Shown: positions 10,767 to 29,466 of the stretch, piece after piece
Layout: each line of letters starts with the position of its first letter
How positions within the stretch are numbered: the stretch's first letter is position 1
Assembly: GCA_903851135.1 (NCBI GenBank)
Contig: CAINNK010000037.1
Location: forward strand, 1,320-65,319
Source: an uncultured bacterium
GTDB taxonomy: Bacteria > Patescibacteriota > Minisyncoccia > Moranbacterales > GWC2-37-73
Direction: 5' to 3'
Length of the DNA stretch: 64,000 nt
The notes under the pieces: generated by a model
What the model saw: the letters and a program-made list of their open reading frames with translations, nothing else
The model's database searches: none
Told to the model about the DNA's origin: nothing
Program-made: the position numbers and the translations under genes

Positions 10767-10891
10767 GAAGAAACAACGGGGAAACCGCTTGATTTCTTCT
10801 CAAAAAATTTCACTAATCCAATTTATTATCATCGCTCATTTAATAATAAATATTGCTTTTATTATACTATTTTTTTGCAAATCGCGCAAAG

Positions 10892-10920
10892 AAAAAAACG
10901 CACTCGGAGCTTGCGTTTAA
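10892..10920 (-). terminator. hairpin plus T-run downstream of the FG-GAP giant gene (rho-independent terminator candidate)
   Basis: aaacgca-ctcggagct-tgcgttt is a 7-bp stem. On the minus strand it is followed by a T-run. Confidence 0.45.
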
Positions 10921-11130
10921 TTTGGCTTTTTCAAAAAAAATTTCGCTCATTTTTTTCTTCTGCCAAAGTTTTAATTTTGCATTTTTTCAACCTCCCAAAA
11001 AGTCAAAAAACATCGTTTTTACAATCACGAATTCACAATTCTTAAAAACTCAAAAAAATCAATTTTGACAACCTCAAAAACAGCTTGCAACTCAAACTCT
11101 CATCAATTTCTTCAAAATTTGCAACAATTT

Positions 11131-14100
11131 TTAACGCAATTTAAAGCTTCCGCGAACTTTGAATTGACCGCGCGAACGAACCAGCGGAAGCAATTCACTT
11201 GTTTTGGCTTCGGTGATGATGATTGAGACTCGACCAGTATTAGTGAGGTAGCCCGAAGCCCCAATAGCAAGATCAATATCGCCGTCCTGATTAAAATCAC
11301 CCACCGCCAAAGACCCGCCAAAACTATTGTTATCGCCAGTTATTCCAGTAATTATTTCATCTGCCGAAGCTGCTAAAGCAGGATAAGGAGTGTAGACATT
11401 ATCAAAAAAAATGTAAACCCGACCAACCCCAGAATAACCTGAAGCGCCAATCACCAAATCTGTTTTACCGTCAGCGTTGAAGTCGCCAACGGCCAAATCA
11501 GTTCCGAAACCACTTGAAGATTCACCGTTGATGATGACATCAGCCATGGCAGCGGTCGTTGGGATAGAGCCATCGTTATAGAAAATATAGACACGCCCAC
11601 CGGAACCCGCACCCGTTGCGCTAACCGCCAAATCTGTCTTACCATCAGCATTCAGGTCACCAGCAACAATAAAATATCCAAATTGACCCGTCTCACCATC
11701 GATGATAACATCGGCCGTGGCAGCGGTCGTCGGAATGGAGCCATCGTTATAGAAAATATAGACACGACCAGTACTAGAGGAGTAAAGAGGTGCCCCGACC
11801 GCCAAGTCAGTCTTACCATCGGCGTTGAAATCACCAGCAACAAGAGAGCTACCAAAGCCACTTGATGCTTCCCCATTAATGATCACATCAGCCGTGGCAG
11901 CGGTCGTCGGAATGGAGCCATCGTTATAGAAAATATAGACTCGCCCAGCTTGAGAGGAATAGTTATTAGCTGAAACCGCCAAATCGGTTTTACCATCAGC
12001 ATTAAAGTCACCAGTGGTAAGAATTTCACCAAACAAATTAGTCGTTGCTTCGCCAGAAATTATAACATCAGCCGTAGCAGCGGTTGTTGGATACGAGCCG
12101 TCGTTATAGAAAATATAAGCACGACCAGTGCTGCTTGACCACATTAAACCGCCAACAATTAGATCAGTTTTGCCGTCGCCATTCAAGTCACCCGCAGCCA
12201 GGTTAGCTCCAAATTGAGTTGCAGCTTCACCATCAATAATGACATCAGCTGCAGAAATATTAGGAGAGACTTTTCCATTAGCCGCATAAAAAATGTAAAC
12301 TCGACCAACACTAGAAGAATAGCTGAAAGCTCCGACAACTAGGTCTGTTTTGCCATCAGCATTGAAATCGCCAGCCGCCATATATGCTCCAAAATAAGTC
12401 CCAGTCCCCGGGCCTGAACCGGTACTGTCATTGAAAGTATAAAGGTAAGTCCGTCCGGCATTGGAAGAATAACCATAAGCCCCAACCACTAAATCAGTTT
12501 TGCCGTCGGCGTTAAAATCTCCAGCCATTAAAGTATAGCCAAAATAATTAGTTGTTGCTTCACCAGTGATAATCGTGTTGGCAGCCGTTGCGGCAATGGT
12601 TGCACTAAAACCACCAGCCGAATTTTGATTGAAAATATAGGCGCGGCCAGTGTAAGAAGAATAATAATAAGCCCCAACCGCCAGGTCGGTTTTGCCATCA
12701 GTATTAAAATCGCCAGCCGCAAGAGCATAGCCAAAATAATTATTTGTTGTTTCACCGGTGATGATTGTATTAGCGGCTGTCGCAGCAATGATCGCGTTGA
12801 AACCGCCCCCAGAGTTTTGATTAAAAATATAGGCGCGACCGGCATTAGATGAGTATTGATAAGCGCCAACTGCCAAATCAGTTTTGCCATCAGCGTTGAA
12901 GTCGCCGGCTGCCAAAGAAGATCCTAGAGAGCCGTACATTGCTTGAGCATCTATGATAGTATTAGCAGACGTAGCCGCAAGTGGTGTAGTGAAACCGCCC
13001 CCGGAATTTTGATTAAAGATATAAACACGGCCACCCCCAAGATAAAGCCCGCTGTAAGTACTACATCCAACCACTAAATCAGTTTTGCCATCAGTATTAA
13101 AGTCGCCGACTGTCAGAGAAGCACCAAAAGTAGTAGTCTGACCAGTAATAATGACATTGGCTGAGGCTGCAGCGATAGTTGCACCAAAACTTTGATTAAA
13201 AACGTAAACCCTTCCACCACTAGTATACATATAAGCGCTTACAACCAGATCAGTTTTACCATCAGCGTTAAGATCGCCAGCAATCATTCCATTGCCAAAT
13301 TTATCACCAGATGTTTCCCCGGTAATGATAGTATTAGCAGTGCTTGCAGCGATGGTTGGGCTGAAACCACCGCCAGAATTTTGATAAAAGATATAGGCGC
13401 GACCAGTATTGGTTGAATATCCATAAGCCCCAACCGCCAAATCAGTTTTTCCATCAGCGTTGAAATCGCCAACTGTCAGAGAATAGCCAAAATAACTCGA
13501 CGTTTCACCATCAATAATAACATCGGCTGAAATAGCAGTAAGTGGCGTAGAACCTTTGTTATAAAAAATATAAACGCGACCAGCATTACTAGCATAAGCA
13601 TAAGCCCCAACCGCCAAATCAGTTTTTCCATCAGCGTTAAAATCGCCAGCCGTCATTGCATACCCAAACTGACTTGAAGCTTGGCCGGTTGTTTTCATTT
13701 CCTGCCCAGCTCCCGCCGGACTAATGCGAAGCGACCCAGGCAGACCGACATTTTGCAATTGCCAGATGAAGTTGTCACGAGCTTCATAGAAATAGGATCT
13801 TCCTGCAGAAGAAGAATACCCATAAGCACCAACTACTAAATCAGCTTTACCATCACTATTGAAATCGCCAGCAATTAAAGCACTGCCGAAATAGTTGCCT
13901 GTTGTTTCGCCGCCGATAATCACATCAGCCGTGGCGGCAGTGGTTGGAATTGTGCCGTCGTTATAGAAAATATAGGCGCGACCGGTATTAGTCGAATATT
14001 GAGTTGCGCCAACTGCCAAATCAGTTTTACCATCAGCGTTAAAATCGCCAGCAACAAGGGAAGTGCCAAAATTATTAGTCGTCGTTTCACCAGAGATGAT

Positions 14101-17100
14101 TACATCAGCCGTGGCCGCGGTGGTAGGAATAGAACCATCGTTATAGAAAATATAGGTGCGACCTGTATTAGTAGAATAACCATAAGCACCAACCGCTAAA
14201 TCTATCTTACTATCGGCGTTAAAATCACCGGCTGCGAGAGAAAAACCAAAATAATTATTCATTGTTTCGCCAGTAATGGTGACGTCAGCAGTAAAAGCGT
14301 TAGTTGGAATGGAGCCATCATTATAGAAGATATAGGCGCGACCAGCATTAGCGTTAATACCATCCATATAGCCATAAGCACCAACCGCTAAATCTATCTT
14401 ACCATCCGCATTAAAATCACCAGCTGCGAGGGAAGAACCAAAATTACCCCCCACTATTTCACCATCAATTTTAATATCAGCTGTTGCGGCAGTGGTAGGT
14501 ATTGAACCATCGTTATAGAAAATATAAGCTCGGCCGGTATTACTTGTCCATAATAAAGCTCCGACGGCCAGATCAATCTTACCATCAGCATTGAAATCAC
14601 CGGCCGCAAGTGAAGTGCCGAATTGACTTGAGGCTTCACCAGTAATTTTCACATCAGCCGTCGCAGCAGTGGTTGGAATTGTGCCGTCGTTATAGAAAAT
14701 ATAGGCGCGACCGGTATTGGTAAAATAACCATAAGCACTAACGGCCAAATCAGTTTTCCCGTCGCCATTAAAATCGCCAGCTGCCAAAGCAGATCCGAAA
14801 TAACTTGACGCCTCTCCAGTGATGATGACATCAGCCGTGACAGCAGTCGTCGGAATAGAACCGTCATTGTAAAAGATATAAGCTCGACCGGTATTAGTCG
14901 AATAAGCATTTGCGCCAACTGCCAGATCAATTTTGCCATCAGCATTAAAATCACCCACCGCAAGTGAAGTGCCAAATTGGCTTGAGGCTTCTCCGGTCAT
15001 CATTCGATCCGTGTTTATGACTCCGTTTTGGGAATAAAAGATGTAGGCACGGCCATTGTTGGTTGAATATCTCTGAGCTCCAACCACTAAGTCAATTTTT
15101 CCATCAGCATTGAAATCACCAACAGCAAGGGAGCTACCGAAATAACTTGAGGCTTCACCGGTGATAATGACATCAGCCATAATGGAGGTGGCCGAATATG
15201 CACCATCGTTGTAAAAAATATAAGCCCGACCAGGAGAAACATATGTCCCTACCGTCAAATCAGTTTTGCCGTCGGCATTGAAATCACCGGCCGCAAGTGA
15301 AGTGCCGAATTGGCTTGAAGCTTCTCCATCAATGATGGTGCTTGCCGCGCTTGCAGCAATAGTCGCATTAAAACCGCCGCCGGAATTTTGGTTGAAGATA
15401 TAAGCACGACCAGCCTGAGTAGAATAACCAGAAGCTCCAACCGCCAAATCAGTTTTGCCATCGGCGTTGAAATCACCAGTCGCCAGAGAGCGGCCAAAAA
15501 TATTGCTTGACGCCTCTCCACTGATAATGACGTTGGCGGCCGTAGCAGCAATAGTTGCATTGAAACCGCCGCCGGAATTTTGATAGAAAATATAAACCCT
15601 ACCAGTAGAAGTCCCCAACCCAACCGCCAAGTCAGTCTTACCGTCAGTGTTAAAATCACCAACAGCCAAAGAAGAGCCGAAACTGCTAAACCCAATAGTG
15701 CCTGATATTTTTACATTGGCACCGGTCGAGGTAGCTGGATATGAACCACTGTTATAAAAAATATAAACATTACCATAGGCTACATCATTAGAATCTCCGA
15801 CGGCCAAATCTGTTTTACCGTCGGCGTTAAAGTCTCCAGCCGCCAAAGTATTGCCAAATTGAACTGTCGGGCTATTCCCATCAATGATTGCATTAGCAGT
15901 TGTAACAGCCACAATTGCATTAAAACCGCCAGCAGCATTTTGATTGAAAATATAAACCCGACCCTTTTGGCTAGTTGTAGCAGAATACCAATTTGCACCA
16001 ACTGCCAAATCAATTTTGCCATCAGCATTGAAATCACCAGCTGCCAATGCATAACCAAATTGACTTGCTGCTGAAGTTTCACTATTAATAATGACGTCAG
16101 CATTGGCAGCAGCTGCTGAATAAGAACCTTTGTTGTAGAAAATATAGACGCGACCATCGCCAGAATTCCAGTCATAAGCTCCAACCGCCAAATCAGTCTT
16201 ACCATCAAAATTAAAATCCCCAGCCACCAATGAATTAGCAAAATAGTCACCCGTATTCTCTCCTGTTATCACACTTCCCCCACTGCTAATCCCCGGCGCA
16301 GTGAAAGCCAGAGTCGGATCCAAAGTCAGCGGATATTTATCCGGCGTAGTTTTGATTTCCAAGGTTAAAGTTTTATCACTGATTTTCCAATCAAGGTCAA
16401 CTCTTTTGCCGTCTTTGTCTAGGTAGTAAGGTTTGGGGATGATGAAGTCCGGAGTCTTGTTGGGATTTAAAATATCCTTGCCTGCATCAGCTTGAATAGC
16501 TTTTTGCGCCCTTTCGATTAAGCTTTGGTCAACATTAGCCAGAGCTTGTTGGTTTTTCGCCTCGCTGCCATCGTCAAAAAAAACTTGGACGTCACCATCA
16601 CTGTTGAAACTGAGTTTAGCGTTGCTAAAATCATAGCTTTCGCTTTCGCTTCCATTGCCAAGAGCATAGACAACCCAGTTTTTAAGTTTTTTTTCACCAC
16701 TAGCTTGGTCTTTTTGATAACCATAATAAATGGTTTTGCGAGTGTCTGGAGTTTGATATTTAATAACATCGGCAGCGAATTTAAGTTGCGGTTGTTTTTC
16801 ATTGTTAGCTTGCTTGGCTTGAACTGGATTTTGATTAACAATCAATTCTCCCTTAGTATTGGAGGCATTTTTTTCAGTAATAGTGATGACTTTGTTATTA
16901 GGAAGATTGACTGAAATTGGTTGGTCAATAGTCTTGGGAAAATTTATTTTAGTTTGGGTTTTAGGGTTTGGAATTTGGGATTGTTGATTGGCAAATTGGA
17001 TTTTGATTCCATCTTGATTGTCATCGGTTATTTCAAACCCGTCATTAGTTTTGGCGGGGTTAAGTAATGAGATAGAGTTGAAACTTTTGACGATTTCATT

Positions 17101-17286
17101 TTTGGCGGCGGGATATTGATTCAATTCTCTTTCAATGGAATTAGTAGGAAGATTTTTAATTATGAATATGACAAGTAAGACTAAAAAGGCCAATGCTAAA
17201 AGTGAGGCTAAAAGGGTTAGCAAAAACTTTTTTGAAAAGTTCGGCCAAGAAATTTTTGAGAGAAGTTTTTGAATTTTTGCTTTCAT
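11131..17286 (-). CDS. giant (2051 aa) membrane-anchored protein with about 36 tandem FG-GAP/VCBS-type (integrin-alpha-like) repeats
   Basis: ORF track. The N-terminal TM anchor is LLTLLASLLALAFLVLLVIFII. The motif FGxSLAxGDFNADGKxDLAVGA recurs every 56-60 aa across nt roughly 11200-16300. Many repeat units are near-identical at the DNA level. Confidence 0.8.
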   Translation of the reverse strand: MKAKIQKLLSKISWPNFSKKFLLTLLASLLALAFLVLLVIFIIKNLPTNSIERELNQYPAAKNEIVKSFNSISLLNPAKTNDGFEITDDNQDGIKIQFANQQSQIPNPKTQTKINFPKTIDQPISVNLPNNKVITITEKNASNTKGELIVNQNPVQAKQANNEKQPQLKFAADVIKYQTPDTRKTIYYGYQKDQASGEKKLKNWVVYALGNGSESESYDFSNAKLSFNSDGDVQVFFDDGSEAKNQQALANVDQSLIERAQKAIQADAGKDILNPNKTPDFIIPKPYYLDKDGKRVDLDWKISDKTLTLEIKTTPDKYPLTLDPTLAFTAPGISSGGSVITGENTGDYFANSLVAGDFNFDGKTDLAVGAYDWNSGDGRVYIFYNKGSYSAAAANADVIINSETSAASQFGYALAAGDFNADGKIDLAVGANWYSATTSQKGRVYIFNQNAAGGFNAIVAVTTANAIIDGNSPTVQFGNTLAAGDFNADGKTDLAVGDSNDVAYGNVYIFYNSGSYPATSTGANVKISGTIGFSSFGSSLAVGDFNTDGKTDLAVGLGTSTGRVYIFYQNSGGGFNATIAATAANVIISGEASSNIFGRSLATGDFNADGKTDLAVGASGYSTQAGRAYIFNQNSGGGFNATIAASAASTIIDGEASSQFGTSLAAGDFNADGKTDLTVGTYVSPGRAYIFYNDGAYSATSIMADVIITGEASSYFGSSLAVGDFNADGKIDLVVGAQRYSTNNGRAYIFYSQNGVINTDRMMTGEASSQFGTSLAVGDFNADGKIDLAVGANAYSTNTGRAYIFYNDGSIPTTAVTADVIITGEASSYFGSALAAGDFNGDGKTDLAVSAYGYFTNTGRAYIFYNDGTIPTTAATADVKITGEASSQFGTSLAAGDFNADGKIDLAVGALLWTSNTGRAYIFYNDGSIPTTAATADIKIDGEIVGGNFGSSLAAGDFNADGKIDLAVGAYGYMDGINANAGRAYIFYNDGSIPTNAFTADVTITGETMNNYFGFSLAAGDFNADSKIDLAVGAYGYSTNTGRTYIFYNDGSIPTTAATADVIISGETTTNNFGTSLVAGDFNADGKTDLAVGATQYSTNTGRAYIFYNDGTIPTTAATADVIIGGETTGNYFGSALIAGDFNSDGKADLVVGAYGYSSSAGRSYFYEARDNFIWQLQNVGLPGSLRISPAGAGQEMKTTGQASSQFGYAMTAGDFNADGKTDLAVGAYAYASNAGRVYIFYNKGSTPLTAISADVIIDGETSSYFGYSLTVGDFNADGKTDLAVGAYGYSTNTGRAYIFYQNSGGGFSPTIAASTANTIITGETSGDKFGNGMIAGDLNADGKTDLVVSAYMYTSGGRVYVFNQSFGATIAAASANVIITGQTTTFGASLTVGDFNTDGKTDLVVGCSTYSGLYLGGGRVYIFNQNSGGGFTTPLAATSANTIIDAQAMYGSLGSSLAAGDFNADGKTDLAVGAYQYSSNAGRAYIFNQNSGGGFNAIIAATAANTIITGETTNNYFGYALAAGDFNTDGKTDLAVGAYYYSSYTGRAYIFNQNSAGGFSATIAATAANTIITGEATTNYFGYTLMAGDFNADGKTDLVVGAYGYSSNAGRTYLYTFNDSTGSGPGTGTYFGAYMAAGDFNADGKTDLVVGAFSYSSSVGRVYIFYAANGKVSPNISAADVIIDGEAATQFGANLAAGDLNGDGKTDLIVGGLMWSSSTGRAYIFYNDGSYPTTAATADVIISGEATTNLFGEILTTGDFNADGKTDLAVSANNYSSQAGRVYIFYNDGSIPTTAATADVIINGEASSGFGSSLVAGDFNADGKTDLAVGAPLYSSSTGRVYIFYNDGSIPTTAATADVIIDGETGQFGYFIVAGDLNADGKTDLAVSATGAGSGGRVYIFYNDGSIPTTAAMADVIINGESSSGFGTDLAVGDFNADGKTDLVIGASGYSGVGRVYIFFDNVYTPYPALAASADEIITGITGDNNSFGGSLAVGDFNQDGDIDLAIGASGYLTNTGRVSIIITEAKTSELLPLVRSRGQFKVRGSFKLR

Positions 17287-17404: not shown

Positions 17405-20400
17405 TTACGGACTCGGAACAGTTGTAACAACTGGGAAAGTCAATGATGCCGAGGTGGTAGCTTGCACAATCCACCAATCCACATTGACACCTTCATTTAC
17501 TGATTGATCCACTATAATTTTAAACCCGGTGTAATCGTCTAGGCCACTTTCCATTGTCTTTTCGACCCAACTTGAAGATCCTGGATTTTTCACGAAACTG
17601 GTGAAAATTTTCGAATCCCCACTAACTGCCCTGGTCTTAATTTCCACGCTCTTGCCATCACTGATTGGATTTTTCGTGTTGTCATCAAAACCATCATTGT
17701 TCTCATCAGTTTGAGCTACTGTACATTTATTATTTTTATCAACTTCCAGCAACTTCGGACAAATAATCGCCTGTCCAATCGAAGGCTTGTTAACATCTAC
17801 AATTTTGATAGTCAAGATTCCAGTTTCAACTTCAGCAGCTTCTAATTTTCCGTCAAGCAAATCAAGATTGCCAAGTGAATCTTTGTAAATTATTTTTGTC
17901 GGATCAAGAATTGCAATAAAATCACCAATGGTCTTGTTTTGTTCTTTGATTAAATTGATTTGCGTTTGCAATTGATCAGTAATATTTTTTTCATCAGCAA
18001 TTTGAGCTTGCATGCCAAACATAGTAGTTGCTTGCGCAGTAATTTGGGCATCAAGCGTTGTAAATTTGCCATTAATAATCAACAGATTTGAATCAACTGA
18101 AGTTTGAAGTCCGGAAAGACTTGAAATATCGGTATCAGTTTTAAGGTTAAGTGCCGAAATTTGATTTGAAATAGTATTAATTTGCTGGATATTCTTTTGG
18201 ATTCCAGCTGTAAGCAGCGGTGTAATTGCACCATAGTTGACTACGAAGCGAGCACCAGCTGGACTAATGAAGCCGTCAGCACTTATCTGTTCAGGCATGT
18301 TCGAATCAGGAGCAACAGAAACGAGATAACCGAATCCCTCCTTGATGAGGTCCTGGGCAATAAAACCGGTGTCTAAATTTTGATCAGCAATCCAACGGAA
18401 ATCAACTGGATTAACAGTGTTGAAAAAACTGTCAACTTTGTTGGCATCAATCGGAGTAACATTTTCCTTAAGTCGCTGATCAGAAGTTGCAAGAATGGTA
18501 CTTCCAACAACGGCACCATTCGGAGCATAAACACTGACTGCACGACTAGCTGAAGTAATTATTCCCCAAGTTGTTCCAGTCGAACCATAACCACCGATTG
18601 TAAGGTTGGCACTTGAGGTCACATGTACAGGGACTGTTGGAGCTGTTGTTCCAACGCCAACAAATCCGGAATTAATAATCAAGCCATAATTATTTGTCGC
18701 GCCAGATGCGTTCAAATAAAGACCGACATTGGTCGAAGTGCCCCCGGAATGAGTATTGGAAATTTGAGATCCATATGTGGTAACAGTTCCAGTAATAGTT
18801 CCAGTAGTGAGAATATTTAAAGCGGTTTGTGTCGTTGATGAAGCGACATTTCCCGATACTTGCAAATCAACGAGTTTTCCGGAAGTGAGCGTTGAAGATG
18901 CCGCATAAAGACCTGTTCCTGTGGTAAGTGAATTTGCTGAAAGATTGAGTGCACTCGAAGTGGTCAAACCAGTAGTGTTGCCAGAAACAACCGATAATGT
19001 TCCGCCCGGAGTCACTGTGCCAATACCAATGTTACCTGTGGAATTTATTGAAAGATATGGAGTTGTGCCAACAGTCAAACCAAGACCGATTTTGAAAACT
19101 GAGTCACTTTGGTCAATCCCAGTATAATAATCCTGACTATTGCCATCAAATTGAACAGAAACACTTTGACCAGCTGTTCCACTGCCAACAACAAGGGCCG
19201 ACTCAGCAGTGTTTGAACTCGAAAAAGCAAGATCGCCATTGCTCGCAGAAGCAAGATTGGCATAATGAGAAGCATCATATGACAAACGCAGCGCGTTGCT
19301 TGTGCCAAAAAGAGAAAGCATGGCTGCTGGCGCGGTGGTGCCAAGACCAAGCCGATGATTGGTCGCGTCATAGAAAAAGCCGGAATTGTCTTGAGCCAGT
19401 GCCCCAGCAGTGCCACCAAAATAAACTGAGCCGAGCGTGCCAGAAGTCACCGCGCCGCCAATCGCCATGCCACCGCTGCCACCAAGATTGGCCCATGAGC
19501 CGCCACTGTTTTTATATTGCAGCGTGCCAGCATTGTCATAAATTCCATAACCGCTTGCTCCATTAGTAGAACCAAAATTCAAATAGGAAGAACCAGCCAA
19601 ACTGGCATTTCCCGCATTTATAACTAATCCATAATTCGCAGTAGTTGCACCGGAAGCATTCAAATAAAGTGCCACATTAGTGCCGGAAGTCGCATTGGTG
19701 TGCGTGTTAGAAATCTTAGCGCCATAAGTCGTGATAGCATTGGTTGCATTAGCACCGGTTGTCAAAATGTTAAGAGCAGTCTGGGATGCTGCCGCTGCTG
19801 TGCCAGAAACTTCCAAGTCAGCCAGATAACCACTAGTTAGTGAGGATGAGGCGGCATATAAAGCAGTTCCCGTAGTCAAAGCATTTGCAGTTATATTGGC
19901 CGAAGTCGTTGAAATTTGTTGCGAACCAATGTTATTTGCAAACAAATTACTAAAAGCCAACATACTTGAACCGATTGAACCCCCTGGTGTAAATGAAGGA
20001 CTGATTGTTTTCAGATCTCCATTTGTAACGTCATAATAACTAATTTTGGAATTTCCACTCGAATCAACAGCAATGGACGTGTACTGTCCGGTGTCTCCCG
20101 TTGAATCAATGGTGGCAGTCGAGCTGGAAGAGCAAGCTACGTCACTACACTGAGCAAATTTCAAATCGCCATTAGTAACGTCATAATAACTCATGCGGGC
20201 AATTCCGTCGCTGCCCAAAGCGGCAGCTTGATATTGACCAACATTGCCTGCGGAATCAATCACGTTACCAGTACCAGCACTGGTTGTGTTGCCATGGCTA
20301 TAATTCAAAGTGCCATCAGTAGAATTATAATAAGCAACGTTAAAATTATTACTTGAATCCAAATCAAGAGAAAGATTTTGAAAAATCTCAGCACCGCTAG

Positions 20401-23400
20401 TGTTAATACTACCAGCACTTGATAGCGAAGAACAACTAGCGTTACTGCAAACAAGATACGACATACCGGAATCAGAATAGCTAGCATAAGCAATACGAGC
20501 AAAACCATCAGTGCCTATAGCAACAGCTGTATATTTTCCAGTACCAGCATTTGAATCAACAACAGTGGTGTTCTTGGTTGAACAAGCGGAATTGGTACAT
20601 TGAATGAATTTAGCATTCGTATTAGTCAAATCATAATAGGCAATCCGAGCAAAAGTGTCCGCGGAACTGATAGCAATGGAACTATACTGACCAACATCTC
20701 CAGTTGAATCAAGGGTGGCGATATTCTTGGTTGAACAAGCTGCATTGGTACACTGAACAAATTTGAGATCATGATTAGTAACATCATAATAACTGATGCG
20801 AGCAAAACCATCAGCGCCCATTGCCATGGCCGTGTATTGACCAACATCTCCAGTTGAATCAAGGGTGGCGATATTCTTGGTTGAACAAGCTGCATTGGTA
20901 CACTGAACAAATTTGAGATCATGATTAGTAACATCATAATAACTGATGCGCGAAAAGCCATCACTGCCAATAGCAGTTGAAGTATATTGTCCCACATTGC
21001 CACCAGAATCAACAACAGTACTACTAATAGTGGGAACTGTTGGCATAATGTCTCCACTTACTGAAACCGAACCGGCAACTTGCAATGCTGTCATTGGACT
21101 TGTTGTCCCGATGCCAACATGACCATCATTGCGTACAAACAGACCTGAAGTTCCGGAAGCATTTTTAACATTCAAAGCTGACGCAGAACTGTCTGACGTA
21201 GCGCCCATAATTTCAAGATTTGATCCGGGTGAAGCAGTGCCAATACCAACATTGCCAGCGCTAGTAATGCGTAACCTTTCAGTAAGGGTGTCTGCGGTCG
21301 TATTAGGTGGAATTGCTGAATGATTAATTGAAACCGCCACCGCAGATGCACCTATCGATGCACCGGAATTCCACAAAGTCCAAGATATCGTAGTTGAAGC
21401 TGCGCCATCCTTAACACTACCCGCTCCGCCAAATGTGGAAGTGGGATTCTGAAACCATAAAGCTGTTTGACCAAGACCCCCGGTAAGCGACATGGAAGCT
21501 GAAGACGTCGCTTGGATTACACCAAAAACTTTATTACCTACAGCACTTGAAAGCGTGACAGCATCAATTGAGCCATTGCCACTACCGCTAGCGCTTCCAG
21601 ATGTAGATACCGGGGTTGATTGATCAACATTGTACCAAGATGCCGCCCCACCAACCTTCGCACATGAACTTGCCATCGTAATCGTAATTGTGTCTGTTCC
21701 TGAAGTTGGATTTACCAAATACCAAATTTCAACAACCCCGTTATATCCTCCAGAAGTTCCAAGCTTTGTCAGACTTGCCGCTCCATACGTAACCGACGAA
21801 GCTCCAACCCCACTAGTGCCACCCATAACACCAACAAGCAAAAACCGATTACTATTCGAACCGACGGTATGTGACCATGCTAAAGTTGTGCCAGTGGTGT
21901 TTGAATTGTGACTACTTGCATCAAGAGTAACGACTGGAGTTGTCAAGGGACCAGCCGTTCGAAAAATGAAATCACCGGAACCTGAACTGCCGGTTCCATT
22001 TGAAGCATCAAAAATAAAGTTGCCACCAATAATGTTGCTGCCAGTTGCAGCCGCTCCTCGCAAAGTGAAAGCAGAGGGTGTGGCTCCTTCACCTGTTCCA
22101 AAAATCGTAGAAGTTCCCGCCACATGCAGCGCCGCGGCCGGCGTTGCCGTACCGATTCCAAGACGATTGGTTGAATTATCCCAAAAGAAATTTGCGTTGT
22201 TTTGAGCAAGAACGCCAGAAGTGCCGGCAAAAAGAATGGAACCTTGCGTTGCCGAAGTGATTGCGCCGCCAATTGCCATAGCCCCACCCCCGCCAAGATT
22301 AGCCCAACTGCCACCACTGTTTTTGTATTGCAGCGTGCCGGCATTATCATAGAGTCCATAACCGCCAGTTCCATCAGTGGCTCCGAAATTGATATACGAG
22401 GAAGCTGAAAGGCCGATGTTTCCTGCTACGTCTAATTTATGATTTGGACCAGTAGTCCCGATGCCGACGTAACCATCACGCTCGACCGCCATCGCATAAT
22501 AAGTCGTGTCGGTCAAGCCAACGGGTAAACTTCCAATGCCGACATTCCCAGCATCCGCACCAATATTTGTCACGGTCAATACTCCACCAGACGTGGTTCT
22601 ATTTGCTATATCAACCGCTAAATATATTGTCGAACCATCAGAGGAAATGAACGTTCGAATATTATCCATCGAAGCGTTACTGCTGTAGTGATTTTCATTC
22701 AGGATATTCAGCGACATATTTTCGTCAAATTGAGATCCGTTCACAGCCACTGTGTAGCGGTCGACTCTATTGGAGTCATCAAACGTGATAGTATAAATTC
22801 CACCCAGTCGCGATCCGACGGCAACATAGTATGTACCATCTGCCGAAATAGTGGACTGAACGGAATTTGCCGTCCCAACTCCAGAACTCGAGATAAGCCC
22901 GGCGACGTCCAATAACGATTGTGGGGAACTTGTCCCGATGCCGACATACCCGGTATCCCTGGCGAACGCGAGCATATTCGAGACGGACAAGGAAGAAAAT
23001 CCCAGTGTATTCGCGTTCTCGTCAAATGTAAGGTTGAAATTCTCAACTCCGGAACTATCGGCAAATGAGATAACGTCGGCCGTGCTCCCGTAACCAGCCA
23101 TCACCAAGGATACTGGGGCCGCGCCAGAACCGAGCTGGAGCGTCCCAGTCGGGCTCGTCGTCCCGATGCCGACGCTGCCACCGGCAGCATTAAGCACGAT
23201 ATCTCCATAGGAAGTTCCCTCCGCTTTAATGGATTGAATACCGAGATACCCATTCGTATCAGCACTCGTATAAAAATATCCAGAGGTATGCCCGGTAGCG
23301 TCACTCCCAATTGTAAAATCCGTTGTGCTCCCAGAACTATAAATGCTCAAAGTGCTGCTAGGGCTCGTCGTGCCGATGCCGACATTGCCATTATTCAAAA

Positions 23401-24211
23401 CTGTCAAAGCGGTAGTGCCTCCACTATTGCCGACGTTAAGTTGAATGGCAGGAGAAGTTGCCGTTCCATTGCCGGAAGTGCCCTGCAGTTTCAAAATGTC
23501 TGTGACTCCAGTGCCACCGATGACGGTGCCAGCAGAACCTCCAGCCAGTTGAATGTTTCCAGTGGCACTGACATTGCCTTGCGCATCAACTTTAAATTCC
23601 TGAGTGCCATTTACAGCCAAGCCCAACAGCGTATATCCAGCAGTTGCCGAAGCCGGATTAACATAAACCGTTCCGCCACTGACAGTATTGCCAGTTGGCA
23701 AACCGGCGATATTGATAAAACCATCCCCAATCAAATTATTCGAATTGAAAGCTTGCGGCACGGCGCCAATTCTTTTACGCGAAGTCATTTCAGCGTCAGT
23801 GCCAACGGTGATGCCAAGATAATATGCGTCTTGAGAAAAATCAACGTTCATCGCATTGTCACCAGCCACCGTATCCCCAAGCATAATCGAGAACATTCCG
23901 TTGGTCAGTGTCACCGCTCTGGCAGTTGGCGTACCAACTGTTCCGCGCGCAGTCCAAACCGGTGTGCCACCACTGGCAACAGTATACAAACTTATTTTGA
24001 AATTATAACTTCCATCAGCGACTGAAACGCCAGATCCGTCTGTCAATTTTCCCTGATAATTTATTTGCTTGTTGATGCCGGTTGCAGCTTGAGAAAAACT
24101 GACAAAAAATGCTATTCCAACCAACACAGAAAAAAACAAAGCAACCCATTTTGCTGTGGATTTCTCATTTTTTGGCTTATTTATTTTTATTTTTGGATTT
24201 ATGAGAAACAT
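17405..24211 (-). CDS. giant (2268 aa) secreted tail-fibre/tail-spike-like protein with a peptidase S74 (intramolecular chaperone, self-cleaving) domain near the C-terminus
   Basis: ORF track. The N-terminal signal peptide is AKWVALFFSVLVGIAFFVSFSQA. It has long Gly/Ser/Thr-rich beta-helix-like repeat regions and seven roughly 50-aa blade-like repeats, each with a conserved Cys pair. The C-terminal region reads SDQRLKENVTPIDANKV...DTGFIAQDLIKEGFGYLVSV...VVNYGAITPLLTAGIQ, followed by a coiled coil and a Cys-containing tail. Confidence 0.8.
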   Translation of the reverse strand: MFLINPKIKINKPKNEKSTAKWVALFFSVLVGIAFFVSFSQAATGINKQINYQGKLTDGSGVSVADGSYNFKISLYTVASGGTPVWTARGTVGTPTARAVTLTNGMFSIMLGDTVAGDNAMNVDFSQDAYYLGITVGTDAEMTSRKRIGAVPQAFNSNNLIGDGFINIAGLPTGNTVSGGTVYVNPASATAGYTLLGLAVNGTQEFKVDAQGNVSATGNIQLAGGSAGTVIGGTGVTDILKLQGTSGNGTATSPAIQLNVGNSGGTTALTVLNNGNVGIGTTSPSSTLSIYSSGSTTDFTIGSDATGHTSGYFYTSADTNGYLGIQSIKAEGTSYGDIVLNAAGGSVGIGTTSPTGTLQLGSGAAPVSLVMAGYGSTADVISFADSSGVENFNLTFDENANTLGFSSLSVSNMLAFARDTGYVGIGTSSPQSLLDVAGLISSSGVGTANSVQSTISADGTYYVAVGSRLGGIYTITFDDSNRVDRYTVAVNGSQFDENMSLNILNENHYSSNASMDNIRTFISSDGSTIYLAVDIANRTTSGGVLTVTNIGADAGNVGIGSLPVGLTDTTYYAMAVERDGYVGIGTTGPNHKLDVAGNIGLSASSYINFGATDGTGGYGLYDNAGTLQYKNSGGSWANLGGGGAMAIGGAITSATQGSILFAGTSGVLAQNNANFFWDNSTNRLGIGTATPAAALHVAGTSTIFGTGEGATPSAFTLRGAAATGSNIIGGNFIFDASNGTGSSGSGDFIFRTAGPLTTPVVTLDASSHNSNTTGTTLAWSHTVGSNSNRFLLVGVMGGTSGVGASSVTYGAASLTKLGTSGGYNGVVEIWYLVNPTSGTDTITITMASSCAKVGGAASWYNVDQSTPVSTSGSASGSGNGSIDAVTLSSAVGNKVFGVIQATSSASMSLTGGLGQTALWFQNPTSTFGGAGSVKDGAASTTISWTLWNSGASIGASAVAVSINHSAIPPNTTADTLTERLRITSAGNVGIGTASPGSNLEIMGATSDSSASALNVKNASGTSGLFVRNDGHVGIGTTSPMTALQVAGSVSVSGDIMPTVPTISSTVVDSGGNVGQYTSTAIGSDGFSRISYYDVTNHDLKFVQCTNAACSTKNIATLDSTGDVGQYTAMAMGADGFARISYYDVTNHDLKFVQCTNAACSTKNIATLDSTGDVGQYSSIAISSADTFARIAYYDLTNTNAKFIQCTNSACSTKNTTVVDSNAGTGKYTAVAIGTDGFARIAYASYSDSGMSYLVCSNASCSSLSSAGSINTSGAEIFQNLSLDLDSSNNFNVAYYNSTDGTLNYSHGNTTSAGTGNVIDSAGNVGQYQAAALGSDGIARMSYYDVTNGDLKFAQCSDVACSSSSTATIDSTGDTGQYTSIAVDSSGNSKISYYDVTNGDLKTISPSFTPGGSIGSSMLAFSNLFANNIGSQQISTTSANITANALTTGTALYAASSSLTSGYLADLEVSGTAAAASQTALNILTTGANATNAITTYGAKISNTHTNATSGTNVALYLNASGATTANYGLVINAGNASLAGSSYLNFGSTNGASGYGIYDNAGTLQYKNSGGSWANLGGSGGMAIGGAVTSGTLGSVYFGGTAGALAQDNSGFFYDATNHRLGLGTTAPAAMLSLFGTSNALRLSYDASHYANLASASNGDLAFSSSNTAESALVVGSGTAGQSVSVQFDGNSQDYYTGIDQSDSVFKIGLGLTVGTTPYLSINSTGNIGIGTVTPGGTLSVVSGNTTGLTTSSALNLSANSLTTGTGLYAASSTLTSGKLVDLQVSGNVASSTTQTALNILTTGTITGTVTTYGSQISNTHSGGTSTNVGLYLNASGATNNYGLIINSGFVGVGTTAPTVPVHVTSSANLTIGGYGSTGTTWGIITSASRAVSVYAPNGAVVGSTILATSDQRLKENVTPIDANKVDSFFNTVNPVDFRWIADQNLDTGFIAQDLIKEGFGYLVSVAPDSNMPEQISADGFISPAGARFVVNYGAITPLLTAGIQKNIQQINTISNQISALNLKTDTDISSLSGLQTSVDSNLLIINGKFTTLDAQITAQATTMFGMQAQIADEKNITDQLQTQINLIKEQNKTIGDFIAILDPTKIIYKDSLGNLDLLDGKLEAAEVETGILTIKIVDVNKPSIGQAIICPKLLEVDKNNKCTVAQTDENNDGFDDNTKNPISDGKSVEIKTRAVSGDSKIFTSFVKNPGSSSWVEKTMESGLDDYTGFKIIVDQSVNEGVNVDWWIVQATTSASLTFPVVTTVPSP
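17408..18488 (-). other. peptidase S74 / C-terminal intramolecular chaperone domain region inside the 2268-aa gene, plus a downstream coiled coil and Cys-containing tail
   Basis: SDxRLKEN, GFIAQD and NYgAItPLLtaaIQ are hallmark motifs of the endosialidase/tail-spike chaperone domain. The serine of SDQRLK is encoded at about nt 18485. Confidence 0.7.
20541..20990 (-). repeat. intragenic 150-bp (50-aa) tandem repeats, with two copies identical over about 110 bp
   Basis: 20691-20840 and 20841-20990 begin with identical sequence (ccaacatctccagttgaatcaagggtggcgatattcttggttgaacaagctgcattggtacactgaacaaatttgagatcatgattagtaacatcataataactgatgcg). A more diverged copy sits at 20541-20690, and further diverged copies lie between 19980 and 20540. 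Confidence 0.85.
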
Positions 24212-24318
24212 TTTTGTGAGTCTTTTTTTATCTTTCTTTTTTTGAATAAAAACTACCTAAAAAAGACGCACGCTCCCTACCCAGAAATTATATTTCTTCA
24301 TAGGGAAATTATAGCACA

Positions 24319-24348
24319 AAAAGAGCATTTTTTAAATGCTCTTTTAAA
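24319..24348. terminator. bidirectional hairpin between the small secreted-protein gene and the giant gene
   Basis: aagagcatt-ttttaa-aatgctctt is a perfect stem, flanked by A/T runs. Confidence 0.4.
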
Positions 24349-24436: not shown

Positions 24437-25150
24437 CTAGAGTTTTGCGATTGCTGTATAGCTCAAAATGTTCGTGTAATTTCCAGCTTTTTGCGAAGAA
24501 GGAACATCCAATTTGTAGCCAACCACTGTGCTGTCAATTCCACTCGAATATCCATTCTTGGTGTGAAACAAAGTTGAAGTGGTTGGAATGGCAGCATATT
24601 TGTAACTTGGATTCGTTCCCCACTTAGCTTCAACTGCCGTACCAGAACTCACCGTGAATCCAAAACCAGTTCCTGACCAAAAGCAAGGCGAGGCTATCGC
24701 GCAAGAATATGCTCCTATCGTCGTCACAGCGTCAGTGTGTTTCAAATTATTATTTTCTGAGATATAAAGGTCATAACCGCCCCAAGCATCGGTTGTGACT
24801 GAAGCCGTGGTGGTTGCCGTTATCGGCGTTCCGGAAGTCACCGAACCAAGATTTTTTGTGCTCGAATCCAAAAACAAACTCAAACCATACGTGGTCATAG
24901 GAGCCAACCCTTCTCCGATTGCAAAATTAGTGCTGGCCATGTTCCCAATGAAGGCTTCACCAATCGAATCAAAAGTTTTGTAGTTGGTGGAAGTGCTGAG
25001 ATTTCCGCCCGAGTTTATCGAGTCGGCGTTGATCTGATAATTCGCGCTAGACATTGCCAGCGCGGAAAGCGCGTAAAAACCGAACAAAAAAATAACAAGT
25101 AGTAGAATTATTTTTTTCATCTGTTTTGTAAAATAAGTTTCAAATATCAA
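24437..25150 (-). CDS. small secreted Thr/Ser-rich protein (237 aa) of unknown function
   Basis: ORF track. The N-terminal signal peptide is MKKIILLLVIFLFGFYALSALA. It sits immediately upstream of, and co-oriented with, the giant protein genes. Confidence 0.55.
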   Translation of the reverse strand: MIFETYFTKQMKKIILLLVIFLFGFYALSALAMSSANYQINADSINSGGNLSTSTNYKTFDSIGEAFIGNMASTNFAIGEGLAPMTTYGLSLFLDSSTKNLGSVTSGTPITATTTASVTTDAWGGYDLYISENNNLKHTDAVTTIGAYSCAIASPCFWSGTGFGFTVSSGTAVEAKWGTNPSYKYAAIPTTSTLFHTKNGYSSGIDSTVVGYKLDVPSSQKAGNYTNILSYTAIAKL

Positions 25151-28599: not shown

Positions 28600-28675
28600 G
28601 GCAGGGTAGCTCAGTTGGTTAGAGCACAGCCTTCATAAGGCTGGGGTCGCGAGTCCGAGTCTCGCCCCTGCTACG
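28600..28675 (+). tRNA. tRNA with CAT anticodon (elongator Met or Ile2/lysidine type)
   Basis: It begins ggcagggtagctcagttggttagagc. The anticodon stem is cagcc/ggctg with loop ttCATaa, the T-arm is gcgag-tccgagt-ctcgc, and the acceptor 3' strand is ccctgct. Confidence 0.8.
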
Positions 28676-28683
28676 GATATTGA

Positions 28684-29373
28684 TTGAAAAAAATCATGCC
28701 AATTTACAAAAAGAAAAATGAGAATTTCTTTAAAAAATGGTCACCAGAAATGGCTTACGTGTTGGGATTTTTTGCAGCAGATGGTTGCATGATTAAAAAC
28801 AATCGCGGAGCACATTTTATTGAGTTTCATATTACTGATTTAGATATTTTGGAAAAAATTAAAAAATTACTAGAAGCTGAGAATAAAATTTCAACAAGAA
28901 AAACCAGTGCTGAATTAGCAAATGCATATAGACTACAAATAGGAAGCAAGGAAATGTTTAAAGATTTATTATCGCTTGAATTTAAGCCTAGAAAGAGTGC
29001 CAGCGTTCAATTTCCAAAAATTCCAAACAAATATTTGAAAGATTTTGTTCGAGGATATTTTGATGGAGATGGAAATGTTTATGCAAATGAATATCAAAGA
29101 AAAGGAAAACCTAGCAAAAGTCTAACATTGCTAGCAGGATTCACTTGCGGTAGCAAAAATTTTTTAGAAAAGTTAAAAGAAGAATTGAAACAGGTTGCAA
29201 ATTTATCAGGGGGAACATTGCATGAAATTGGCGGGTACTTTCGCCTATACTATTCAGTAAAAGATAGTTGCAAGTTGTATAAATTCATGTACAATACAAA
29301 AAGTGATTTATTTTTGGAGCGAAAGAAAAAGGTTTTTGAAGGTTATTTCAAAAAGCAAAATATTTTATTTTGA
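28684..29373 (+). CDS. LAGLIDADG-family homing endonuclease (double-motif, free-standing)
   Basis: ORF track. Motif 1 is LGFFAADGCM and motif 2 is VRGYFDGDGNV. The protein is Lys-rich, as is typical of homing endonucleases. It lies between tRNA(CAT) and tRNA-Asp, not inside a tRNA. Confidence 0.8.
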   Translation: MKKIMPIYKKKNENFFKKWSPEMAYVLGFFAADGCMIKNNRGAHFIEFHITDLDILEKIKKLLEAENKISTRKTSAELANAYRLQIGSKEMFKDLLSLEFKPRKSASVQFPKIPNKYLKDFVRGYFDGDGNVYANEYQRKGKPSKSLTLLAGFTCGSKNFLEKLKEELKQVANLSGGTLHEIGGYFRLYYSVKDSCKLYKFMYNTKSDLFLERKKKVFEGYFKKQNILF

Positions 29374-29389
29374 TAAAATGGACTGGTAG

Positions 29390-29466
29390 CTCAGTTGGTT
29401 AGAGCACCGCCCTGTCACGGCGGGGGTCGAGGGTTCGAGTCCCTTCCAGTCCGCATAGATAAAAAA
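29390..29466 (+). tRNA. tRNA-Asp (anticodon GTC)
   Basis: The acceptor is ggactgg/ccagtcc with discriminator G. The anticodon stem is cgccc/gggcg-like with loop ctGTCac. The T-arm is gaggg-ttcgagt-ccctt. Confidence 0.85.

Follow-up and report, generated by a model that had tools for sequence, protein, structure and literature searches.

The 64-kb window (the whole stretch of DNA that was analysed) contains, at 17405..24211 on the minus strand, a gene for a 2268-aa, phage-tail-fibre-like precursor. On balance, this gene is best explained as a chromosomal gene of a CPR bacterium for a Sec-exported, trimeric surface fibre of the mosaic adhesive trimer (MAT) kind, whose C-terminal 359 aa would act as a pro-piece that assembles the trimer and is then cut off. 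The protein carries an S74 chaperone/protease domain with its catalytic dyad intact, is encoded among cellular genes and ends in a C-terminal module that is widespread in other proteins. Named homologues, together with a CPR-like gene content, put the organism among the Patescibacteria (CPR), probably close to Moraniibacteriota; it would be a tiny and probably host-attached cell.

The Fibre Gene and Its Cellular Setting

The reading frame begins with ATG and ends with the stop codon at 17405-17407, and the identical 2268-aa protein was found on nine metagenome contigs, the longest of 123 kb, with the same flanking genes at the places shown. A promoter-like site, TTTAAA-17-(TG)TATAAT (24308..24336, minus strand), lies approximately 97 nt 5' of the ATG and is a consensus match only. 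The neighbours of the gene are a giant with 28 FG-GAP repeats and an RCC1/Fn3 giant. The downstream FG-GAP giant (2051 aa; 11131..17286, minus strand) is found 119 nt past the fibre gene, with no terminator-like site seen between the two, and is a recurrent neighbour of family members, the same pairing occurring at loci L011 and L015. Upstream lies an ORF of 237 aa (227 aa in another call; 24437..25150, minus strand), the product of which is secreted and weakly similar to PamT, the tip pilin of the CPR pilus; its match to NCBIfam NF058579 (E 2.4e-14, 53 bits) is far under the cut-off of 240. The order of this ORF and the fibre gene is kept on other contigs. The weak PamT likeness might suggest that fibre and Pam pilus are connected, but this was rejected: at L002, the locus of a relative, Pam genes are absent and the 227-aa ORF is not related. 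For the LAGLIDADG ORF, an Rfam search for a surrounding group I intron gave no match.

The scan of the window took in 32 further ORFs of 150 aa or more, every one of them cellular or unassigned and none phage structural; among them are gyrB, ligA, gatA, recG, lexA, two GH130 genes, a Mur ligase gene and a type IV pilus operon. The scans, PHROGs included, revealed no capsid, terminase, portal, baseplate, replication or integration genes in the 64 kb, in agreement with a preliminary description in which phage genes had been reported absent from the vicinity. Were the gene a tail fibre of a phage or prophage, or recently inserted by a phage, the PHROG tail-fibre match described below would be accounted for, as would the distant matches (27-38% identity) of the S74 part, some to Roseobacter and Synechococcus phage tail fibre genes and others to Lak megaphage genomes in regions that lack annotation. 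Nevertheless, such an origin is extremely improbable: besides the absence of phage structural, replication and integration genes, the flanks consist of gyrB and giant surface proteins in an order kept on the independent contigs shown, the GC content is inside the window's range, a signal peptide is present (by the -3/-1 rule), relatives adjoin enolase, tRNA synthetase, recJ and similar genes, and the C-terminal module was found neither in 50,697 phage genomes nor in IMG/VR pattern scans. On this context a prophage tail fibre was rejected, and the reading is effectively refuted for the 64-kb window. The term "domesticated" in the preliminary description presupposes a direction of transfer.

The N-Terminus and the Fibre Body

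As read from the sequence, the N-terminus (aa 1-42; 24086..24211, minus strand) resembles a signal peptide, with a K-rich n-region, an 18-residue hydrophobic core (W22-F39) and then SQA/A. The earlier account of a signal-peptide-bearing protein beside other giants thus holds in that the protein looks exported, the signal itself being a heuristic call by the -3/-1 rule only. It is followed by a conserved domain (aa 43-175; 23687..24085, minus strand) with the motif INYQGKLTD...YYLGITVG.D.EM..RK.IGAVP. The 15 homologues found for this domain are all metagenomic, and the four with a taxon name belong to Parcubacteria, Patescibacteria (two) and Gottesmanbacteria; no Bdellovibrio protein was among the matches, and a PDB sequence search with the domain gave nothing useful. 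The giant at L002 carries a similar N-terminus. The domain is a candidate for cell-proximal attachment, and with the signal peptide removed, retention on the cell would depend wholly on this uncharacterised domain.

The fibre body (aa 176-1909; 18485..23686, minus strand) is rich in Gly, Ser, Thr and Ala and contains ten copies of [VLI]G[IVL]GT..P....L, the last at aa 1851, 59 aa ahead of the cleavage Ser. This motif aligns with RVGINTDRPDEALVV of the eukaryotic protein MYRF, sited just N-terminal of the MYRF S74 domain, and resembles the capping-loop consensus of MAT fibres, of which the printed form is one position off the version shared by MYRF and the window (PMC10769870). The body also includes an internal duplication of approximately 105 aa (copies at aa 605 and 1542) and a region of Cys-pair repeats (aa 1066-1412; 19976..21016, minus strand) made up of about seven repeats of approximately 50 aa, with C-x4-C in five and the consensus DSxGxVGQYTSxAxGxDGxxRISYYDxTNxDLKFxQCxxxxCS. 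A 150-bp tandem repeat (20571-20997) falls inside this region, a natural variant of the protein has exactly one Cys-pair repeat fewer, and the repeats had no match in PDB or Pfam. YadA_head trimeric-adhesin repeats are present in one family member.

The S74 Chaperone/Protease Domain

The Peptidase_S74 domain (aa 1910-2022; 18146..18484, minus strand) was recognised by Pfam, PHROG and a profile search against solved structures. Pfam Peptidase_S74 (PF13884) matches aa 1910-1957 (E 1.8e-9, 38.2 bits against a cut-off of 22) and is the sole Pfam match in the whole protein, PHROG 9942 (tail fiber) matches aa 1906-2024 (E 7e-8), and NCBIfam has no model for the protein. A profile search was needed because searching PDB with the single sequence of the C-terminal 404 aa yielded chance coiled-coil matches only; the family profile matched 8jov (7e-15), 6f45 (1.7e-14), MYRF 7dc3 (1.2e-11) and GA-1 3gud (0.01). 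SDQRLK of the fibre protein aligns with SDERLK (8jov), SDRRIK (6f45) and SDERHK (3gud), in keeping with SDxxxK, and the solved chain of the GA-1 chaperone domain, 3gud, starts with SDERHK. The predicted nucleophile is Ser1910 (codon 18482-18484) and the predicted general base Lys1915, which would place the cut between aa 1909 and 1910. The Ser-x4-Lys dyad is kept in 49/49 S74-class relatives and is visible by eye in divergent S74-like relatives (STRSTK, SYRRYK and SDRNTK).

The preliminary description had assigned this domain from motifs read by eye, and both the assignment and the motifs stand: the dyad is intact, and SDQRLKENV (aa 1910), GFIAQDLIKEGFGYLV (aa 1949), NYGAITPLLTAGIQ (aa 1992) and CPKLLEVDKNNKC (aa 2151) are all present in the ORF. 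Its further point, that the domain is not terminal, is also correct, but the helix that comes first behind the S74 beta part is still part of the canonical chaperone, and the true extra sequence is aa 2023-2268. The solved phage S74 structures 8jov and 6f45 stop at a profile position corresponding to approximately aa 2022, leaving 246 aa here. An S74 domain is as a rule terminal, and MYRF is a known exception. An AF2 monomer of the C-terminal 404 aa was poor (pLDDT 57.6, with the S74 part under 50) and was left out of the fold search.

A Widespread Module Beyond the S74 Domain

The extension opens with a coiled coil (aa 2023-2100; 17912..18145, minus strand) that starts with the family signature LKTDxNxxxLxxLQTSVD, in which LKT, L, S and D are invariant. 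AF2 modelled aa 2023-2100 as one long helix, the heptad a/d positions are occupied by hydrophobic residues at z = 3.0 relative to shuffles, and length differences of the coiled coil across the family are enriched at multiples of 7. A highly conserved linker follows (aa 2101-2140; 17792..17911, minus strand; IYKDSLGNLDLLxGKLxAxxVETGxLTIxVxD..PTIG), of which the low pLDDT in the monomer model is compatible with an inter-chain element. The linker leads into an eight-strand beta-sandwich ending in VDWWIVQ (aa 2141-2250; 17462..17791, minus strand) and a short Thr/Ser/Pro-rich tail (aa 2251-2268; 17408..17461, minus strand) that is missing from most relatives. Family alignment identified a lineage-specific insert in the sandwich (aa 2151-2185; 17657..17761, minus strand), consisting of a Cys2151-Cys2163 loop and an acidic DxNxDGxxD loop that may bind Ca2+; the Cys pair is present in 19/164 family members, while a DxDxDG-like acidic loop is commoner (103/164). 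Therefore, of the coiled coil and Cys-containing tail described earlier, the coiled coil stands, and the Cys loop is a minority insert inside a conserved beta-sandwich. Conservation of the module is highest in the linker and core strands, not the loops. The best structural matches of the sandwich are the trimer-locking domes of tailspikes, at 7-16% identity and without Foldseek significance.

Far from being peculiar to this protein, as the word "unusual" had implied, the extension is a conserved module in its own right that recurs widely at protein C-termini in metagenomes: 1072 protein clusters match it at E<=1e-3, and 182 do so at E<=1e-30. In 130/164 relatives no more than 5 aa separate its end from the C-terminus, a DWWIV-like ending is found in 131/164 members, and the module is 51-55% identical between proteins with unrelated bodies. 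Every named or placed relative is a CPR bacterium, and a scan of genome contigs for relatives gave six loci. Pfam, NCBIfam and PHROG have no model for the module. P0005 and P0006, the closest S74 relatives, lack it.

In 49 of the 99 relatives with enough upstream sequence the module comes after S74; in another 19 it comes after a GADYAEYF domain, and in 13 after one that is unknown. The top PDB matches of the GADYAEYF domain, the phi29 gp12 and Dpo31 tailspike autochaperones, are weak, and because no match to Pfam, PHROGs or PDB reached significance, a phi29-type autochaperone is a lead only. A DGAVHGLYARF domain had no match at all. In about 8 of the 99 the module follows domains without a recognisable protease; in these it must be kept after maturation, a situation equally compatible with a foldon and with a functional tip or anchor.

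A Model for Fibre Assembly and Its Alternatives

In the favoured model, the unfolded chain would leave through Sec by way of its N-terminal signal. The C-terminal 359 aa, in which the S74 chaperone is prolonged by a coiled coil, itself trimeric, and by a beta-sandwich "dome" like that of tailspikes, would then set three chains in register outside the cell, where ATP and general chaperones are absent, and would nucleate the beta-helical fibre so that it folds from its C-terminal end toward the N-terminus. Once a correct trimer had formed, Ser1910 and Lys1915 would cut the chain before Ser1910, freeing a 38.9-kDa fragment and exposing the fibre tip. The mature fibre of approximately 186 kDa would be held on the cell by the conserved N-terminal domain and would bind a surface structure of the host organism; its trimeric state and any recognition of prey or host are predicted from homology. 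The long helix in the AF2 model and the heptad signal count in support of an assembly role for the module, and the dome-fold resemblance likewise points to assembly rather than to the role of its own that had been suggested for the released fragment. A clamp role is weakened by the fact that canonical S74 domains trimerise fibres without an extension, which leaves the need for an extra clamp unexplained. A more specific proposal is put forward tentatively, as possible but short of probable: that the coiled coil, linker and DWWIV sandwich form a CPR-associated assembly cassette, interchangeable behind S74, GADYAEYF (phi29-gp12-like) and DGAVHGLYARF self-processing chaperones, in the host-recognition fibre of an epibiotic CPR bacterium.

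The module might instead be an effector or receptor-binding unit, with a lectin-like trimeric head borne by the coiled coil as its stalk, and would either be held non-covalently at the tip or be shed as a soluble factor that has a role of its own, as the preliminary description had suggested. The variable insert with its acidic and Cys loops is what would be expected of a ligand-facing surface, the module must be retained where it follows non-protease domains, and its identity across unrelated bodies is strong. This is nonetheless rather unlikely, as conservation peaks in the linker and core strands and not in the loops, the best structural matches are trimer-locking domes, no binding-site motif was identified, and its position in most members, past a cleavage site that is conserved, speaks for discard. 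A cell-proximal anchor or sorting signal, engaging the envelope, an S-layer or a CPR-specific attachment system, with the S74 cut freeing the fibre, appears distinctly unlikely. The strictly C-terminal position and DWWIV-like ending do recall C-terminal sorting domains, and T9SS CTDs, which are such domains, are also beta-sandwiches; moreover, the N-terminal signal looks cleavable, leaving no other obvious anchor, and in MYRF, where cleavage frees the N-terminal trimer from the membrane, S74 likewise lies upstream of an anchoring region. However, no transmembrane segment or LPXTG motif is present, the Pfam scan gave neither SLH nor LysM nor any other recognised wall-binding domain, the genes next to it include no evident machinery dedicated to sorting, the fold matches give no pointer to envelope binding, and the conserved N-terminal domain right after the signal peptide parallels MAT fibres.

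It is also conceivable, but very doubtful, that the S74 domain is an internal trimerisation unit that does not cleave, so that the whole 2268-aa chain would be mature, with the coiled coil and sandwich distal. The internal position of S74 is in its favour, as is P0006, in which a VGIGK..P motif and a different beta domain come after the S74 helix, as if the fibre continued. This reading is disfavoured because conservation of the Ser-x4-Lys dyad, here and throughout the S74-class and divergent relatives, is hard to explain without catalysis.

Significance

The CPR, or Patescibacteria, account for a large part of the diversity of bacteria. To our knowledge, all of their cultivated members live attached to other microbes, and we know of few molecules, beyond type IV and Pam pili, by which they choose and hold their hosts. 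As a fibre of the phage-receptor-binding type whose gene lies clustered with those of other giant surface proteins, the protein is a concrete candidate determinant of host recognition. Its post-S74 module is unannotated, yet present in more than 1000 protein clusters, and defining it would allow such fibres to be catalogued; the module might also account for the folding of very long trimeric fibres once Sec has exported them from a cell without an outer membrane. If the assembly cassette is real, it would add a new, third class to the fibre autochaperones and offer an HMM handle on the host-attachment repertoire of the CPR.

Comparison With Known Systems

Phage S74 chaperones (K1F endosialidase, T5 pb1, S16 gp37 and GA-1 gp12; PF13884, MEROPS S74) possess the same domain and Ser-Lys dyad and, like the fibre protein, carry S74 directly behind a beta-helical stalk motif. 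They stop approximately 115-155 aa past the catalytic Ser, whereas the fibre protein continues for 359 aa and has no virion context. The eukaryotic MYRF ICA (7dc3) is an S74 homologue that is used by a cell, is internal and has a VGINT..P...L motif upstream. In MYRF, a transmembrane segment and luminal domain then follow and the cut frees a transcription factor, while the fibre protein is exported and has no transmembrane segment.

Tailspike depolymerase domes (Klebsiella K1 lyase 7w1c, K64-1 S2-4 9k4a and cyanophage Pam1 7eea) are C-terminal, as is the module sandwich, and that of the K1 lyase locks the trimer; there is no sequence similarity between these domes and the sandwich. Furthermore, a tailspike dome comes directly after the beta-helix and is kept, while the sandwich comes after a protease and a coiled coil. 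YadA trimeric autotransporters are long trimeric fibres with a C-terminal trimerisation unit that nucleates their folding, as proposed here. In contrast with that family, the fibre protein has no beta-barrel anchor (no Pfam match), its C-terminal unit is soluble and probably removed, and its organism is probably without an outer membrane.

The closest known kind is the S74 subgroup of the Bdellovibrio MAT fibre family, for example Bd3182. Bd3182 of Bdellovibrio bacteriovorus self-cleaves at the S74 Ser, while a Ser-to-Ala mutant does not (Caulton et al., 2024; PMC10769870). Because it was biochemically validated in this family, the concept of a cellular S74 fibre is not new (PMC10769870). The homologue list for other lineages in that study has no CPR entry (PMC10769870), and the fibre protein extends the MAT concept to this lineage. 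MAT proteins are approximately 1000 aa long with S74 at the end, compared with 2268 aa and 246 aa beyond S74 here; the approximately seven 50-aa Cys-pair repeats of the fibre body are unlike MAT, and the MAT host is a diderm predator, whereas that of the fibre protein is probably a monoderm CPR bacterium. The beta-rich domain of approximately 130 aa after the MAT signal peptide may have a counterpart in aa 43-175, the named homologues of which are CPR only. In both, cellular, non-phage genes encode a signal peptide and then a conserved N-terminal domain, followed by a long fibre with capping-loop motifs of the VG.GT..P...L type and an S74 domain with SDxxxK, and the CPR organism probably shares the way of life of Bdellovibrio, which lives by attaching to other bacteria.

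The S74 Domain and the Fibre Body

The fibre protein is encoded by the minus-strand ORF at 17405..24211, starts with ATG and comprises 2268 aa. The motifs quoted in the preliminary description all lie where they had been placed (SDQRLKENV at aa 1910, GFIAQDLIKEGFGYLV at aa 1949, NYGAITPLLTAGIQ at aa 1992 and CPKLLEVDKNNKC at aa 2151), and its assignment of a Peptidase_S74 domain was borne out by Pfam, in which PF13884 matched aa 1910-1957 (E 1.8e-9, 38.2 bits, gathering score 22), the sole match in the whole protein. A PHROGs tail-fibre family matched aa 1906-2024, and the S74 domain as delimited here spans aa 1910-2022. A profile built from the C-terminus of the fibre protein and 12 homologues matched solved S74 domains, namely the 8jov tail fibre (7e-15), the long-tail-fibre tip of phage S16 (6f45; 1.7e-14), MYRF (7dc3; 1.2e-11) and the GA-1 chaperone domain (3gud; 0.01). 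The SDxxxK motif of all four aligned on S1910-DQRL-K1915, and the Ser1910/Lys1915 dyad is intact. Because the first residue of the 3gud chain is the Ser aligned to Ser1910, cleavage is predicted immediately N-terminal to this residue.

By rule of thumb, aa 1-42 resemble a signal peptide (K-rich stretch, 18-residue hydrophobic core, SQA|A); they are followed by a domain (aa 43-175) whose sequence is conserved in other CPR proteins, likewise at the N-terminus. Gly, Ser, Thr and Ala make up 47% of the fibre body (aa 176-1909), which contains ten copies of the motif [VLI]G[IVL]GT..P....L. This motif aligns with 'RVGINTDRPDEALVV' immediately ahead of the MYRF S74 domain and resembles the beta-helix capping-loop consensus of Bdellovibrio mosaic adhesive trimer (MAT) fibres and MYRF (PMC10769870). 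The body also contains an internal duplication of ~105 aa (at aa 605 and 1542) and, at aa 1066-1412, about seven repeats of ~50 aa, five with a C-x4-C pair, encoded by a 150-bp tandem repeat (window 20571-20997). A metagenome variant of 2218 aa (P0196) lacks exactly one repeat (aa 1088-1137) and is otherwise identical, owing either to variation of copy number in the population or to collapse during assembly.

The Extension Beyond the S74 Domain

The claim that the S74 domain is not terminal was upheld. The solved 8jov and 6f45 proteins stop at the profile position just ahead of the LKTD motif at aa 2023; thus, the helix that directly follows the S74 beta part counts as canonical, leaving a true extension of 246 aa (aa 2023-2268). 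According to an AF2 prediction, the extension begins with a single long helix of ~70 residues, whose heptad character is reflected in hydrophobic occupancy of a/d positions (z = 3.0 versus shuffles); length variation within the family is enriched at multiples of 7 (15 of 40 cases). It continues through a very conserved 40-aa linker (consensus IYKDSLGNLDLLxGKLxAxxVETGxLTIxVxD..PTIG), which as a monomer has no confident predicted fold, into an eight-strand beta-sandwich ending in VDWWIVQ, modelled with pLDDT >90 over most of the domain (model ma19b03f8031c). Of the coiled coil and Cys-containing tail described initially, the helix stands, while the 'tail' proved to be inserted into the first hairpin of the sandwich and, among the aligned relatives, is shared with P0001 only. 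Of 164 family members, 19 have a Cys pair and 103 have a DxDxDG-like acidic loop.

Fold searches of the sandwich returned LKA1 gp49, phiAB6 and KP32gp38 among generic sandwiches. Foldseek matches were below significance, both against the PDB, where the same tailspikes recurred, and against viral models, where matches annotated 'K1 capsule-specific polysaccharide lyase C-terminal domain' were recurrent. In the K1 lyase structure, a dome of three such sandwiches 'firmly locks the three subunits' (PMC8822698). The modelled likeness to this dome may serve as a functional lead and is not proof of homology.

Distribution of the Module and Its Partner Domains

The extension is a modular, conserved unit. 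An exhaustive HMM search of 1.84 billion cluster representatives with the module alone recovered 1072 representatives at E <= 1e-3, 439 at E <= 1e-10 and 182 at E <= 1e-30, in proteins of up to 6169 aa; in 130 of the 164 proteins examined, no more than 5 residues separate its end from the C-terminus. Pfam, NCBIfam and PHROGs contain no model for it, tblastn with two different members found no match in 50,697 phage genomes, and pattern-based IMG/VR scans gave no confirmed match. Six loci carry it in the genome collection, two in MAGs labelled Moraniibacteriota and four in unclassified or uncultured bacteria. The window holds one module copy and one S74 domain.

Among 99 representatives with at least 220 aa ahead of the module, canonical S74 precedes it in 49, all of which retain S-x4-K, and an S74-like domain identified by regular expression in 5. 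A GADYAEYF domain occupies this position in 19, P0001 and the relatives' proteins L011 38-4342 and L013 20-10444 among them; the L013 protein (3474 aa) also carries YadA_head trimeric-adhesin repeats. The best PDB match of this domain, the phi29 gp12 pre-neck appendage autochaperone (3gqh), was not significant (E 0.26), nor was that to 28nb, 'chaperon domain D4 of tailspike Dpo31' (E 0.35), with which it has GSDYAEYF in common; kinship with these autochaperones is suggested. In a further 13, including P0032, P0042, P0053 and P0056, a conserved domain of ~140 aa (DGLATKV..C.D..F..DT.G..CIDS..GR.YFR.GGAWHY...GGFQIPNYE...DGAVHGLYARF.DVK) stands in place of S74 directly before the module; it had no Pfam, PHROG or PDB match and might represent a fibre autochaperone of a new kind. 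The remaining 13 were other or unclear, about five of them divergent S74 types by eye and the rest lectin- or CBM-like. The module is missing from P0005 and P0006, which at 55-57% identity are the closest S74 relatives of the fibre protein. This absence, together with the varied upstream domains, indicates that module and chaperone evolve as distinct units, although they frequently occur together. P0005 has a canonical end, following a short coiled coil, while in P0006 the S74 helix is followed by one more VGIGK..P motif and by a beta domain of a different sort; thus, post-S74 extensions are of more than one kind.

Genomic Context

The fibre gene lies in a cellular context. In agreement with the initial reading, capsid, terminase, portal, baseplate and integrase genes were not found in the window, and its unassigned small ORFs had no PHROG match. 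The window encodes GyrB, NAD-ligase, GatA, two GH130 enzymes, a Mur ligase, RecG, LexA, six tRNAs and a complete type IV pilus set (PilB, PilT, PilC, PilM, PilO, PilD and several prepilins). Nine metagenome contigs, the longest of 123 kb, carry the identical protein, and the order gyrB, small ORF, fibre, FG-GAP is kept at the metagenome places shown. Named homologues come from MAGs of Patescibacteria, Moranbacteria/Moraniibacteriota, Parcubacteria and Gottesmanbacteria. Genes adjoining homologues include those for enolase, iPGM, RecJ, NDK and a tRNA synthetase. With cellular genes present, phage genes absent and homologues beside cellular genes, a prophage gene is effectively excluded for the window.

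The reported proximity to other giant surface proteins was also confirmed: the fibre gene is flanked by a small secreted ORF on one side and by two other giants on the other, one an FG-GAP protein with 28 repeats and one an RCC1/Fn3 protein. Giants adjoin module-bearing fibre genes in the window (1569-17286, minus strand) and at relatives' loci L011 (4479-9395), L015 (3746-8515) and L005 (1855-10813), of FG-GAP type in the window, L011 and L015 and of RCC1 type in the window and L005; this recurrence points to a 'giant surface protein island' that is conserved in these CPR genomes. The fibre and FG-GAP genes may be co-transcribed, since the stretch separating them showed no terminator-like site. 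The fibre ATG is preceded, at a distance of ~97 nt, by a promoter-like site with a strong extended -10 (TTTAAA-17-TG-TATAAT; 24308-24336, minus strand). The small secreted ORF (24437-25150, minus strand), immediately upstream of the fibre gene, gave a weak match (E 2.4e-14, 53 bits, cut-off 240) to NCBIfam 'CPR-type pilus protein PamT'. According to a brief remark in a 2026 preprint on the Pam pilus of CPR, the gene of a 'tail fibre-like protein' is co-localised with pam operons (10.64898/2026.03.03.709456); no further pam genes were seen in the window or locus L002.

Elsewhere in the window, a LAGLIDADG homing-endonuclease-like ORF (28684-29373, plus strand) fits tightly between tRNA-Met (28600-28674) and tRNA-Asp (29380-29454). 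Rfam found only tRNAs around it and no group I intron; such introns are reported in CPR tRNA-Asp/Asn genes (PMC13011429). The two GH130 (mannoside phosphorylase family) genes are adjacent (29596-31488 and 31716-33545, minus strand), with N-terminal extensions of ~280-320 aa each that have no Pfam assignment, and the 851-aa Mur-ligase-domain protein (51620-54175, minus strand) has a ~530-aa N-terminal region without a Pfam match.

Proposed Function and Comparison with Known Fibres

The initial observation is confirmed, and the interpretation first given to it gains partial support. A MAT-like trimeric surface fibre is the best-supported interpretation of this protein, whose domain identity and cellular context are directly observed. 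FG-GAP or other giant adhesin-like proteins as recurrent neighbours, and YadA_head repeats in one module-bearing relative, provide supporting context. Once exported by Sec, three chains would be brought into register by their C-terminal 359 aa, which comprise the S74 chaperone, the coiled coil, the linker and the dome and would nucleate folding from the C-terminus toward the N-terminus, giving the module a role in assembly. A cut by Ser1910/Lys1915 would then release a 38.9-kDa fragment and leave a fibre of ~186 kDa, which would be anchored by its N-terminal domain. Phage and MAT S74 fibres provide the analogy for the final step, in which the newly exposed tip would bind a polymer on the surface of the host organism. 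In rival explanations, the module might itself be a functional lectin or effector, or a C-terminal anchor combined with MYRF-like release, or the S74 domain might be non-cleaving.

Cellular fibres of this type have been described in B. bacteriovorus, in which 13 of 21 MAT fibres end in S74 with SDxxxK, and one of them, Bd3182, is cleaved at Ser782, with no cleavage in an S782A mutant (PMC10769870). MAT-like proteins were listed for other lineages, including Micavibrio, Uabimicrobium and Omnitrophica, with no CPR among them (PMC10769870). An incomplete coverage of the literature yielded no description of CPR S74 proteins or of the post-S74 module, a weak negative. Since the MAT work, cellular use of a phage fibre domain is unsurprising; what is worth following is an unannotated, very common module that is paired with self-processing domains of interchangeable type, in a group for which few host-attachment molecules are known. 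MAT fibres of the S74 subgroup end in S74, whereas the fibre protein continues for another 246 aa. The concept of a cellular S74-terminated fibre was already known, and what is new here is the lineage and the architectural variant.
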